Below, piece after piece: positions 1,519 to 38,550 of a DNA stretch of 64,000 bases. This DNA comes from a virus (Duplodnaviria > Caudoviricetes): positions 1 to 64,000 of IMG/VR virus record IMGVR_UViG_3300034126_000020; one strand, written 5' to 3'. The notes under the pieces were generated by a model. It was not told the DNA's origin and made no database searches. It was given only the letters and a program-made list of their open reading frames with translations. Position 1 is the first letter of the stretch. Each line of letters starts with the position of its first letter. The position numbers were made by a program, and so were the translations under genes.

Positions 1519-3447
1519 TCAAACGGCACGAATACCGATGATGTCGCGTGCGCCACTGATCGGCACCAGCTCGAACACGAGGTTGTCCGCTGTCACCAGG
1601 TAAACACGACCAGCACCGGCAGTCTTACGCCCAATAGCGTAGAGTCCGTTCAGGGTGTCGACCATGGTTGGGTCAGCGCCTTCGCCGGTACGACGAGGGA
1701 CACGCACTTCTGCATCGACGAAGCCCAGTTGCTCAGCCATCAGCTTGATGTGAACCATCGCCACTGGCTTGAACAGCACAACCATGTCCTTACGGAACTG
1801 GGTGTACGCTTCTGGGTCGCCTTCGCCCGGTTGCAGCAGGTCCGTGCACTCCAGGAACTCTTCACGCAAGTCTTCCTCGGTGAGGTACTGCATGGAAGCC
1901 AGGAGGATACGGGTACGGCTGAGGAACTGGCTGGCGTAAGCCTGGCCTTGTTTCTTGAACGTGTTGCAGTTGAGCAGGTCTTCGAAGTCTTCGATGAAGC
2001 TTTCGATACGCGGCTTGGCCAGACCGAACTGGTCGCCCAAGGCAGCGTTCACTTCAGTGGTGAAGTGCTTGTCGAGGTAGTTCATCACGTTTTCGGCCAG
2101 AGTGCCACGCAACGACTTGAAGCGCTTCTGCAATTGCAGCAGGTCGCCTTCGTTCACGCCGATGGACTTGATCGATTCCAGAGCCTTCAGGCTGGTAGCA
2201 TCACCGGCCAACTGGATGGACATGATGTTGTTGGTAGCAGTAACGTCACCTTCGTTCTTGGTCGCGTCACCCGCCACACGGACGGCTGCTTCTTCCAGAG
2301 TGGCAACCGAGATCGCCTGCTCAGAGATGTACGGGCTGGTGATGTCCAGCTCTTGCAGCAGTTCTTTGGCAGCGTAGGTACGGGTCGCGTTGAGCGCGTC
2401 CAGATCTACGACGTCCAGGTCCTGGCCTTCGAACACGGCATCGCCTTCGAAACGCTCGGTGCCGGTACGTGGGCGGTTAGGACGCTGATGTGCACGGATG
2501 GCGTGTGCTTCTTCGACAAGATCGTCGGTCATTGCGATGAACTCCTCTCGGATTTGACCGTCGACGCCCTTGACGAGGAACCGCACCTCGTTGTCCGGGT
2601 CATACGCACGGCGGGATTGTTGTTTAGGGGACCAGCTCCACACAAACTTGGAGCGGTGAGCGATCTGCCAGTTCTCGCCCTTCATCCAGAAGTCGTCGTA
2701 TGGACGTTCCTGGCTCATGTCTGGACCTTCCTGAGACGGTGCACGGGTTTCACGTGCTGGCTCAGTACGCGCAGGCTCTTCACGACGAGCCTGCTCAGGT
2801 GCAGGTGGACGTTCACGCGTGGCTGCAAACGCAGAGCGAGGCGCAGACTCTGGCCGACGCTCATCACGGTCACGATTGAAGACAGGGCTTGTGCCACCTA
2901 CGTCACGACCAGCGAACACACTGTTGCTGGCACGTTCTTCACGCGGCTGGTCACGGTCAAACGCAGTGCCACGGCGAGCGCCGTAGGATTCATTGCGGTC
3001 GAACACGCTACGGCTGGTACCACCACCCGAGCCCCACGAACGCGTCTGAGACTGACGCTGATCACGACCACCGCCACGGGTGTTGCCGGACAGACGATTG
3101 AGAATGTCGTTCCACTTGGCATCTGCACGCTTCATTTCGGTGTAGACGTCGTCCGGTACGGCATTCGCCAATGTACGGTCAGACAACCCGAAGGAGCCGC
3201 AGTTCGCATCGACGATAGTCGTGATGACATCTTTGATGCATGCGTCTTCCTCACGGGTAGAACGGCAGCTACGCAGCTCATCTTCGCAGACAAGTGCCGC
3301 TACCTCAACAACGTTTGCCATCTCGTTGTTGTTCCAGTTACCCTTGGACATGTAAGTTGCGTAAGCTTCACGCAGGTCATTATCCCGGGCACGGTTCTCG
3401 ATGTAATCGACCGTACGTTCGTAGATAAAGTTGACGAAATCGCTCAT
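1519..3447 (-). CDS. Conserved phiKZ-like hypothetical protein downstream of the nvRNAP beta subunit
   Basis: 642-aa ORF with phage-like codon usage; Arg/Glu/Ser-rich low-complexity linker between two globular regions. Product inferred from position only. Confidence 0.75.
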   Translation of the reverse strand: MSDFVNFIYERTVDYIENRARDNDLREAYATYMSKGNWNNNEMANVVEVAALVCEDELRSCRSTREEDACIKDVITTIVDANCGSFGLSDRTLANAVPDDVYTEMKRADAKWNDILNRLSGNTRGGGRDQRQSQTRSWGSGGGTSRSVFDRNESYGARRGTAFDRDQPREERASNSVFAGRDVGGTSPVFNRDRDERRPESAPRSAFAATRERPPAPEQARREEPARTEPARETRAPSQEGPDMSQERPYDDFWMKGENWQIAHRSKFVWSWSPKQQSRRAYDPDNEVRFLVKGVDGQIREEFIAMTDDLVEEAHAIRAHQRPNRPRTGTERFEGDAVFEGQDLDVVDLDALNATRTYAAKELLQELDITSPYISEQAISVATLEEAAVRVAGDATKNEGDVTATNNIMSIQLAGDATSLKALESIKSIGVNEGDLLQLQKRFKSLRGTLAENVMNYLDKHFTTEVNAALGDQFGLAKPRIESFIEDFEDLLNCNTFKKQGQAYASQFLSRTRILLASMQYLTEEDLREEFLECTDLLQPGEGDPEAYTQFRKDMVVLFKPVAMVHIKLMAEQLGFVDAEVRVPRRTGEGADPTMVDTLNGLYAIGRKTAGAGRVYLVTADNLVFELVPISGARDIIGIRAV

Positions 3448-24926: not shown

Positions 24927-25292
24927 TCATAGTATTTCGCCACGCACTACCAAACGGTATCCATTGTCCTCTGCCACATCCTTAATGAACTCAACAAAGA
25001 TGTGCCGGTGACAGAACTTTCCAGCTTTGCAGTAACAGGCAACACAGATAGGACCCTCTTGCTCGAGGAACTCTTGGAAGGCTTCAGGATGGAGCCTGAA
25101 CTGCTCCCTGAGGCGTTCTAGGTACAAGACCGTGTACTGCTCGTCTGAGACTTCATTACGCTTGTAAGCCCACAGTACGGACGGCTCAGGTGCAAAGACA
25201 GCGAGACCTGACTTGACAGTGATGTCGATCAGTGTGACTTGCTTCTCCTTAGCCTTGCGCCATTGGGAGAGAGCGATGGTGTAGAGTTCCAT
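24927..25292 (-). CDS. Small protein with C-x-C-x5-CHR motif (DUF488-like)
   Basis: VACYCKAGKFCHRH; AGGAGGG SD. Confidence 0.65.
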   Translation of the reverse strand: MELYTIALSQWRKAKEKQVTLIDITVKSGLAVFAPEPSVLWAYKRNEVSDEQYTVLYLERLREQFRLHPEAFQEFLEQEGPICVACYCKAGKFCHRHIFVEFIKDVAEDNGYRLVVRGEIL

Positions 25293-25320
25293 GATTCCCT
25301 CCTTCGTCTATACAGTGACA

Positions 25321-25755
25321 CGGCATAATAAAAATAAAAGCCATCCGCAGTGCATCCCCCAATGTTCTACCCGAAGACAGAATATTGGAGGCTGCACTAA
25401 AGATGGCATCACTCCGTGAGGAGTGGCACTTCGTGACGCCTGACGTCCCCTTTCAGCCGGATCGGGAGACATCATTGGCAGCGACGTGGAGCACACGCTC
25501 AGACGCGTCATCGTTTACCGTAACACACCACGGGTAGCGTTGGCGTGGGGCTACGGAACCGCAACAACCCTGACTATCACGACGAGTTCATCAGGGGCAA
25601 CGAAATAGTAGCTGAGGGCGCAATGCCCTCAGCTGTGTGGTCCGCCCAATGGGGGAGTGGGAGGGTGCCACGAGTGCGAGAGCAAACGCTCTCCTCTATT
25701 CTACGCAATCAAGCGCATCAGGATGCTGGATTATCTGTTAAAGAACAGGTCCTAC
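25321..25755 (-). ncRNA. Candidate ~430-nt structured ncRNA
   Basis: No credible ORF; at least 8 stems with G-U pairs favouring the minus strand; cUUCGg terminal hairpin + U-tract + TATGCCG; GTATGTA motif at the 5' end. Confidence 0.5.
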
Positions 25756-25778
25756 ATACTATACACGCTTTTTGCGTA

Positions 25779-27221
25779 TCAGAGGTCCATCAGCGCTTGC
25801 AGTGCACGGGTGTTGGTTTCCCCGTCACGGATGCAGGCCGCAACCCAGGTGTCGTAATGGCGAACCAGAACGTCACCGGCACGGTCAACAACCATGTTGG
25901 TGGTCAGGCAGAACTCATGGTTGACTTCGGCTTCAAGAGCAGCCTTGCCATCAGCGGTCAGGAGACCGTTGGAGTCCAGCCACGACATCAACTGACGCTG
26001 AATGCCAACAACGGCATCGACGTCTTGAACGCGAGTGGTGATGTTTTCGATGACGATCGGATCAGCAACCGATTCGGTCGAAACCTTTTTCTTCGGATTG
26101 CCTTCTTCATCCAGCTCGTCTTCTTCCGGATCGACTGGGTCGACCGGATCAGCATCAGGGTCCACTGGGTCCGCATCCGGATCTACTGGATCAGCATCGG
26201 CGTTGGCCGCTTCGATTTCAGCTTCCGGATCAACCGGATCTGCATCCGGGTCGACAGGGTCGACTGGATCAACAGGATCGGCGTCTGGGTCGATTGGATC
26301 GACCGGGTCAGCGTCAGGATCGACAGGGTCGATCGGATCTGCATCGGGGTCAACCGGATCAGTGCTATCGCCCAGCGCAGGATCTGCGTCAGGATCGGTA
26401 GGCACGTCGCCTTCGCCATTGTCCGGATTCGTCGGGGTGTCTTTCTCGATGGTGTTGGCAGTCACGCCGTCATCAAGTTTAGGACCCGACGGATTGTCGT
26501 CACGATGCTGCTCGATCAGATCACCGATACGGTCATCGCCTTCGCTACCAATAGAGGCAGCTTCAGCACGGGCCGATTCAGCGCTTTCTTCAGCAGCTTC
26601 TTTGGCAGTGGCAACCAACGCCTCGATACGGTCAACCGCATCAGACATCTCGCCCAGTACCTGAGTCTGCTCCAGGTCTTCCATGGAGACGCCCAGTGCA
26701 ACCAAGCCATCGCCCATGCGACGAGCGACGTTGAGCACCAGCGGACGGGCCGCTTCGATGGTCATGCCTTCCATGGAGATCACGGCGCGTACGGTGTCGA
26801 TGTTTTCCTTGAACAGACCCAGGGCTTCAGCCTTGAAGTTCAGGGATTCCAGCGATGCCGAGGTTTCGGAGTCACGGGTGGTGAACGGCACTGGCTCGTC
26901 GGAGTCGGCCTTGGCTTGCAGGGCTTGCTCGATGGCCTCGACTTCAGTCAGGCGTGGAGTGAGCACGTCCTGCATGATCAGTTCGACTTGAGCTTGAGGC
27001 TCAGTCACGCCATCGACGACCTGCAAGTCGGCTTGATGATCAGCTTGTTCGAGCACGTCTTCAGCCAACACCATGAAGGAAGAAGCGGAGTCGCTTTCCA
27101 ACGATGGAGTGAGCAGAAGTGCCCGGCCAACCGACATCAGGGCTTCGAGGCTGGTACGGTAGCCTTGAGCCTCATGGAGCATTTGAGCCGCGTTAGGTCG
27201 TGCGGTGGTATTGTGCGTCAT
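25779..27221 (-). CDS. Acidic internal head protein with S-x-E cleavage sites and a Pro-Asp repeat tract
   Basis: TSLE, PSLE, ASLE, ISME, VSME and VSTE sites; (DPVDPDA)n tract. Confidence 0.75.
   Translation of the reverse strand: MTHNTTARPNAAQMLHEAQGYRTSLEALMSVGRALLLTPSLESDSASSFMVLAEDVLEQADHQADLQVVDGVTEPQAQVELIMQDVLTPRLTEVEAIEQALQAKADSDEPVPFTTRDSETSASLESLNFKAEALGLFKENIDTVRAVISMEGMTIEAARPLVLNVARRMGDGLVALGVSMEDLEQTQVLGEMSDAVDRIEALVATAKEAAEESAESARAEAASIGSEGDDRIGDLIEQHRDDNPSGPKLDDGVTANTIEKDTPTNPDNGEGDVPTDPDADPALGDSTDPVDPDADPIDPVDPDADPVDPIDPDADPVDPVDPVDPDADPVDPEAEIEAANADADPVDPDADPVDPDADPVDPVDPEEDELDEEGNPKKKVSTESVADPIVIENITTRVQDVDAVVGIQRQLMSWLDSNGLLTADGKAALEAEVNHEFCLTTNMVVDRAGDVLVRHYDTWVAACIRDGETNTRALQALMDL
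26110..26410 (-). repeat. Coding tandem repeat (DP[V/I]DPDA units)
   Basis: Degenerate 9-21-nt in-frame units rich in GGATC/GGGTC on the plus strand; boundaries approximate. Confidence 0.85.
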
Positions 27222-38498: not shown

Positions 38499-38550
38499 AT
38501 ACAACTCGAGCCAAACGTATTTATTTACCCGGAGTCCTTATGTCCTTGAT

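Follow-up and report, generated by a model that had tools for sequence, protein, structure and literature searches.

A new family of large structured RNA, predicted to form its own transcription unit, in one clade of nucleus-forming jumbo phages

A 486-bp gap between two minus-strand ORFs of a phage genome contains a real and conserved RNA structure on the minus strand, a conclusion that we hold with near certainty. The RNA (25326-25755, minus strand) measures about 425-430 nt from its predicted start to the end of its U-run, as delimited by alignments and by the covariance models R1-R3, and it represents a new family, unlike any described RNA family. Judged from sequence, it is reasonably likely to be, taken as a whole, an independently transcribed, trans-acting, structured non-coding RNA (ncRNA) of ~425 nt. 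Coordinates refer to the window analyzed here, which covers the first 64 kb of a virus record that is 276,810 bp long and has direct terminal repeats. The gap spans positions 25293-25778, with one ORF starting at 25292 and the other ending at 25779. The initial annotation of the window had described this gap as devoid of a credible ORF; its boundaries were confirmed, and no ORF, stop-free frame or peptide was common to the homologues.

Folding, covariation and architecture of the RNA

The minus strand of the gap folds with a minimum free energy (MFE) of -202.7 kcal/mol, compared with -161.6 ± 6.0 kcal/mol for dinucleotide shuffles (z -6.9), and none of 100 shuffles was as good. The density of stems is therefore real and far beyond chance, and the claim that the region is highly structured, for which this shuffle comparison had been named beforehand, was borne out. 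The fold of the plus strand gave a z of -7.6.

In nine sequences, RNAalifold predicted 87 pairs, and 33 of these show compensatory changes. Three covariance models (R1, central; R2, 5'; and R3, 3') span nearly the whole RNA, and covariation in syntenic relatives, proposed as a check in the initial annotation, was scored on them: 73 of the 108 modeled pairs changed on both sides with pairing kept, in alignments that were fitted to the models and are thus biased towards structure. Over the models, 91-98% of the paired cells could pair, vs. 73-82% in shuffled and 27-62% in slid controls, and no shuffle or slide matched the true arrangement. In the central domain (R1), 20 of 35 pairs were both-sided and 97.7% of cells paired (shuffled 82.0%, 0 of 500 as good; slid 27-62%). 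The corresponding values were 19 of 27 pairs and 93.2% for the 5' domain (R2; shuffled 78.9%, slid 41-61%), and 34 of 46 pairs and 91.4% for the 3' domain (R3; shuffled 73.4%, slid 37-47%). Helices 1-3 of model R3 are not claimed, being poorly paired or one-sided. Model R2, built on one sub-clade alone, recovered the other lineages at E values of 1e-5 to 1e-11, and variable regions folded member by member gave an identical hairpin architecture from differing sequences.

About 200 of the ~1620 paired cells, summed over the three pair tables, are G-U. Each of these would be an A-C mismatch on the plus strand, which identifies the minus strand as functional and the molecule as RNA, in agreement with the earlier reading of the wobble pairs on that strand.

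From 5' to 3' on the minus strand, the RNA begins with the 5' strand of helix H1, GUAGGACCUGUUCUU (25741-25755), whose partner at 25417-25432, in the RNAalifold model of nine sequences, lies within the invariant block GUGCCACUCCUC. H1 is the probable closing helix of the RNA, in which the 5' end (GUAGGACCUGUUC) would pair with that block. The two strands of H1 are highly conserved; most of the changes affect one side alone, and in divergent lineages the pairing register is shifted; single-sequence MFE folds often favor local pairings over H1. An invariant small hairpin follows (25702-25717; UGCGC/GCGUA with a 6-nt loop, UUNANU), identical in all members. Three variable hairpins come next: Ha (25678-25693; GAGAGC/GCUCUC), with 5 of 5 pairs both-sided and present in every homologue folded alone; Hb (25637-25671), with 8 of 11 pairs both-sided and a C-rich loop (ACUCCCCCA) in most lineages; and Hc (25610-25634; AGCUGAGGGC/GCCCUCAGCU), with 6 of 6.

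The central domain (25511-25603) is closed by UCGUU/AACGA and contains hairpins H6 and H7. Neither this closure nor the UGCGC/GCGUA hairpin ever varies, so covariation is uninformative at both. H6 (25568-25596; 6 of 7 pairs both-sided) is capped by a 15-nt loop that is invariant, GAACUCGUCGUGAUA (25575-25589). H7 (25518-25556), a nested hairpin, carries a conserved CGCUACC, with 6 of 7 outer and 4 of 4 inner pairs both-sided. Hairpin H8 (25483-25509; GACG/CGUC, 4 of 4 pairs both-sided) has a conserved GCUCC in its loop; a pairing of the 5' UGUU with an H8 strand was dropped, since its changes were one-sided. A conserved GCUGCC (25477-25482) lies 5' of hairpin He (25442-25473), in which 11 of 11 pairs are both-sided and the loop bears a nearly invariant CCGGCU; 15 of 16 members retain the CCGG, and L010 has UCGA instead. 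The GCUGC may pair with CGGC of the He loop, as a pseudoknot, or with GCAGC (25391-25395) at the base of the terminal hairpin, and GCUGC:GCAGC was the single candidate when extra covarying column pairs were sought in a pseudoknot scan. The long terminal hairpin (25340-25407) has the core AGUGCAGCCUCC ... GGGGGAUGCACU, with 13 of 22 and 3 of 3 pairs both-sided, and is followed by a U-rich tract and then a conserved GCCGU (25321-25339), read as the tail of an intrinsic terminator. A U-rich run 3' of this hairpin is found in all homologues, although it is weak in L008.

Eight stems had been claimed at the outset. Five are kept and covary in the homologues, namely 25610-19/25625-34, 25678-83/25688-93, CCCUGA/UCAGGG, GAUGUCUCCC/GGGGACGUC and the 68-nt terminal hairpin (25340-25407) with its U-run. 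The other three were replaced or proved limited to a lineage: CACUCC/GGAGUG (25410-15/25420-25) is limited to the window and the two relatives nearest to it, and GUAGC/GCUAC and CCGUGG/UUACGG gave way to CCGUAGC/GUGUUACGG, a nested helix that covaries and has CCA/UGG inside it. The UUCG loop is seen in the window, but it is lineage-specific.

Members of the family and comparison with described RNAs

The family has 16 members: the window, Pseudomonas phage pPa_SNUABM_DT01 (DT01) and 14 distinct uncultured jumbo-phage contigs. With duplicates removed they represent about 11 lineages, with a pairwise identity of 49-94%. Among deposited phages, blastn found a single relative, DT01, in which the RNA occupies an unannotated 513-bp gap in the matching position. 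When the downstream DUF488 protein was used as a query against IMG/VR, 17 loci were obtained, and those at 53-96% protein identity carry the RNA sequence. Extra viral and metagenomic copies came from pattern scans with invariant motifs, which also returned duplicates of three members. From these scans, candidates L042, L045 and L047 were dropped because they appear to be coding, and L048, L049 and L054 because they scored 12.7 bits and lack the invariant loop. The RNA is present in one copy per genome.

Model R1 had no match in five more distant DUF488-bearing jumbo contigs, with the positive controls DT01 and L010 recovered, nor in phages 201phi2-1, Viktualia and Erwinia phage pEa_SNUABM_54; in 201phi2-1 and Viktualia the DUF488 gene adjoins its upstream neighbor without a gap. 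An exact pattern scan of GTDB, with one genome per bacterial species, gave no matches. The phage genome encodes an RNA polymerase beta-like subunit and tubulin, and DT01 was reported to have both a virion (vRNAP) and a non-virion RNA polymerase (nvRNAP) and to be a relative of Noxifer and phiKZ (PMC8541153). On these genes and the published polymerases and kinship of DT01, the RNA is placed in one clade of nucleus-forming (phiKZ-like) jumbo phages around DT01. Nucleotide identity to the distant members is 65-75% for the RNA vs. 63-78% for an adjacent core gene, and twelve loop or junction sequence blocks are invariant while the neighboring proteins are 50-80% identical.

No Rfam 15 family matched the window at the gathering threshold. 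At E values up to 10, the window gave only a 22-bit match of the terminal hairpin to Lambda_thermo (gathering threshold 50) and a 13-bit snoRNA match, and the nine homologous loci gave only three junk matches, outside or unrelated to the RNA. The families covered include GOLLD, ROOL, OLE, HEARO, raiA, RNase P, tmRNA, 6S, SRP and pRNA, as well as group I/II introns and riboswitches. ARAGORN found no tRNA or tmRNA gene in the window, and the universal blocks of RNase P were absent, as judged by eye. The first impression that the RNA does not fit tRNA, tmRNA or RNase P thus agrees with these searches, and the Infernal/Rfam scan advised in the initial annotation returned no family for either the window or the nine homologues. 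A hammerhead-like CUGAUGA in the window was discarded because it is not conserved in the homologues. The segment GUAAACGAUG resembles a stretch of 16S rRNA, and CCUCC tracts resemble the anti-Shine-Dalgarno sequence; we take both likenesses to be too short to mean anything.

In the literature, no paper describing this RNA was found. A catalogue of structured RNAs built from the same data source, IMG/VR contigs, holds 10,006 unnamed candidates, and the paper names neither jumbo phages nor Pseudomonas (PMC10690425); fragments of the RNA may be among those candidates. Work on phiKZ ncRNAs concerns the same phage type (PMC13282480 and the work cited there), and the phiKZ-group genomes tested here are without this RNA. 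Since no model matched and no paper describing it was found, the RNA is filed as a new family, set apart by Rfam models and the literature.

Transcription boundaries and alternative explanations

The gene upstream of the RNA (25779-27221, minus strand) encodes an acidic 480-aa protein with about 15 PVDPDAD-type repeats, with no match to any Pfam or PHROG family. The C-terminal part of this protein is kept beside the RNA in the window group, L005, DT01, L033, L031, L010 and L032, the lineages whose upstream flank was read as protein or codons. In the distant L010 and L032, recognizable similarity is limited to the C-terminal ~90 residues. The downstream gene (24927-25292, minus strand) encodes a 121-aa DUF488-N3a protein (Pfam PF22751, E 1.9e-07), a homologue of phiKZ gp151 through the annotation of 201phi2-1. 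By tblastn, the DUF488 protein is found in 289 deposited phage records, and the genomes bearing it are mostly those of jumbo phages of Vibrio, Pseudomonas, Erwinia, Salmonella and Serratia. The literature on DUF488 function offered nothing useful for a link to the RNA. Virion-protein and late structural genes surround the locus.

At the 5' edge, a promoter-like box, GTATAGTATGTA (25753-25764, minus strand), contains a phiKZ-type TATG at 25758-25755. Of 15 aligned homologues, 13 have the TATAGTATG box unchanged; the variant forms are TATAGTGTG and TATATTATG, and L043 has TATGTTATG. The TATG itself is kept in 15 of 16 members. Late promoters of the phiKZ non-virion polymerase follow the rule T-3 A T G+1, with the start at G (PMC7598289), and by this rule the predicted +1 is G25755, the same start that the initial annotation had placed from GTATGTA at 25759-25753. 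No sigma-70-like promoter was found in the region. In 276.8 kb there are 6 copies of the extended box T[TA]GTATG[TC]A, as against about 6 expected by chance, so that only its placement argues for function: five of the six copies are intergenic and at the head of a unit (25761, 38504, 50562, 57513 and 184624). The sixth, at genome position 71660, lies in apparent coding sequence, and the shorter GTATGTA copies within genes lack the T[TA] prefix. The copies at 38504, 50562 and 57513 (minus strand) head two ORF-poor structured intervals and a tail-like gene. From its placement, the extended box looks like one promoter class of the phage.

At the 3' edge, the terminal hairpin and its U-run (about 25330) form a predicted intrinsic terminator. 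The hairpin was not called by a simple terminator scan, owing to internal mismatches in its stem, and its reading as a terminator is drawn from sequence and conservation. The (U)GCCGU that follows the U-run (25321-25327) is kept in most homologues, and GCCGU may be part of a polymerase termination signal or of the start of the next unit. A second, TATAG-type box (25307-25313, minus strand) is located past the terminator, ahead of the ribosome-binding site of the gene that follows, and a TATAG, TATG or TATAA box is found at the matching site in most homologues. The gene 3' of the RNA encodes DUF488 in most members, a Kelch-repeat protein in L032 and a small uncharacterized protein in L010, the last two having one additional gene between the RNA and DUF488. 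In L032, Kelch-repeat-like proteins (752-1762 and 2315-3226; NNKMYIYGG...LYEYDP) flank DUF488, and the first sits between the RNA and DUF488. A terminator-like hairpin with a T-run precedes the box, after the stop codon of the upstream gene, in L008 and L032. Taken together, the conserved edges, the upstream terminators, the inserted genes and the second box favor an independent unit over a DUF488 leader, and the RNA is quite probably its own transcription unit. In the window, no terminator is present between the upstream gene and the RNA, so read-through and processing from the upstream mRNA is possible.

A cis-acting role is one alternative. The RNA could be a leader or attenuator, in effect a very large riboswitch or antiterminator, whose body senses a signal and whose terminal hairpin stops or passes transcription. 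A terminator-like hairpin does stand 45-75 nt short of the next gene, which is on the same strand, and pairing of the conserved GCUGC (25478-25482) with GCAGC (25391-25395) would exclude the lower stem of that hairpin; if real, this pairing would link the body to the terminator in an attenuator-like manner. A C-G pair is replaced by U-A, on both sides together, in L032 and L010, and L031 is compatible, but the pairing is broken in L009 and the hairpin-side change of L010 is also explained by the hairpin itself. Given that most lineages have a promoter-like box after the terminator and before the next gene, that this gene is not constant, that no Rfam riboswitch or leader matches, and that the size (425 nt, twelve invariant blocks) is far above known riboswitch aptamers, we consider attenuation unlikely. 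It is similarly doubtful that the RNA is a structured 3' UTR of the acidic (head/inner-body-like) protein gene, which stabilizes the message or is cut by an RNase. The RNA begins 15-60 nt past the stop codon of the homologue in the seven groups read, even in L010 and L032, where the downstream neighbor differs, and the window has no terminator in this interval. However, a hairpin and T-run separate the stop codon from the box in L008 and L032, the box, which also stands at the head of other units, fits the late start signal of phiKZ, and the invariance of the loops goes beyond what stabilization of a 3' end needs.

Two further explanations are both very improbable. The idea that the hairpins act in DNA, for instance as a replication origin or a packaging or recombination site, draws on the equal folding energy of the two strands, on a divergent transcription point ~1.5 kb away and on a local cumulative GC skew minimum nearby. 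The ~200 conserved G-U cells, however, make the fold strand-specific, as for RNA, whole-genome GC skew gives no signal at the locus, repeats and iterons are absent, and the promoter-like and terminator-like bounds share one orientation. The remaining explanation, a coding gene that is hidden or decayed, or what is left of a mobile intron or insertion, draws on the fact that the region is an insertion relative to 201phi2-1 and Viktualia and that in some members a frame begins at an invariant AUG (in AACGAUG). That frame is closed in half of the lineages, its peptides diverge by frameshift, and the AUG lacks a preceding ribosome-binding site. No frame is open or similar across lineages, indels among homologues are not multiples of three, and the variation follows paired columns rather than a codon-like pattern; the group I/II intron models found no match and the flanking genes are complete. 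The genome as a whole lacks a reverse transcriptase, which removes retron and diversity-generating readings.

Possible mode of action and significance

In the proposed way of working of the independently transcribed RNA, the phage RNA polymerase would transcribe it alone, from the G of TATG (25755) to the terminal hairpin and U-run. The transcript would fold into a body that opens with the probable closing helix and the invariant small hairpin, continues through three variable hairpins and the central domain with its two hairpins, and finishes with another two hairpins and the terminal hairpin. The stable folded RNA would then act in trans, its invariant single-stranded blocks contacting a conserved partner, which might be a protein, another RNA or a second copy of itself; alternatively, the blocks might build a pocket for catalysis or for a ligand. 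Contacts could be made by the 15-nt H6 loop, the C-rich Hb loop, the CGCUACC and the CCGGCU loop. At such a size, helices that drift while loops and junctions stay frozen point to a trans-acting folded RNA with contact blocks, and we consider a role in trans to have an even or slightly better chance of being correct; the partner and the biological role are speculative. A search of the phage genome for antisense targets of the invariant loops returned only the self-complement. The CCGG in the He loop is self-complementary, and this, together with the UCGA of the single lineage without it, fits a kissing dimer, although it could easily be chance. We see a small chance that the RNA is a functional machine, either a ribozyme or a self-assembling multimer joined through the CCGG loop, comparable to ROOL/GOLLD cages or the ring of phi29 pRNA, which serves a step specific to nucleus-forming phages; such a step could be virion assembly or packaging, or the traffic or protection of nucleic acids at the phage nucleus.

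Among known kinds of RNA, GOLLD and ROOL are the closest and phi29 pRNA more loosely so, and model search related none of them to this RNA. Like GOLLD and ROOL, the RNA is phage-borne, is several hundred nucleotides long, has many covarying helices and invariant loops and junctions, and forms its own unit (here predicted). It is shorter (about 425 vs. about 580-800 nt), the GOLLD and ROOL covariance models are unmatched even at E values up to 10, and, unlike them, it does not lie beside tRNA genes and occurs in only a single clade of lytic nucleus-forming jumbo phages. We know of no established biochemical role for GOLLD or ROOL. In recent cryo-EM work they reportedly form RNA-only multimers by loop-loop contacts, a feature that may be compared with the nearly invariant, self-complementary CCGG hairpin loop of this RNA. 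The pRNA of phi29 is phage-encoded, independently transcribed and trans-acting, and it oligomerizes by loop-loop pairing, and the present RNA lies among virion-protein genes; pRNA, however, is about 170 nt long, has another fold, and its Rfam model is unmatched. RNase P RNA, tmRNA, 6S RNA and SRP RNA are of similar size and likewise have a multi-helix body shut by a helix of the 5' and 3' ends (here probable), with a terminator hairpin (here predicted) after the mature body, but their Rfam models gave no match. The pattern of drifting helices and frozen loops and junctions is common to RNase P RNA, tmRNA, OLE, ROOL and GOLLD.

A second ORF-free unit of ~295 nt is present in the same genome (G000:C1:184325-184627, minus strand; L037:1030-1328, minus strand), with the 5' box CTGTATAGTATGCAAGG. 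A terminator precedes it, and it ends in its own hairpin and T-run, followed by a GTATAGA box and a gene. The unit is purine-rich, with 14 GGA motifs vs. 8 ± 2.2 in shuffles. It reaches an MFE z of only -2.7, and at the DNA level its conservation across DT01 and three related contigs is 74-82%. On its motif content, it is a candidate RsmA/CsrA-sponge-like RNA, although a CsrA gene is absent from the whole phage genome.

Few large RNAs combine many covarying helices with frozen loops, and historically those that do have proved to be ribozymes, ribonucleoprotein cores or self-assembling RNA structures. In nucleus-forming jumbo phages, the compartment, the polymerases and the evasion of defense have been intensely studied, whereas, to our knowledge, their ncRNAs are almost uncharted. 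The alignment and the three covariance models could seed a new RNA family. The RNA is conserved like a core gene of these phages, and the cultured pair of pPa_SNUABM_DT01 and P. aeruginosa allows direct tests of its role.
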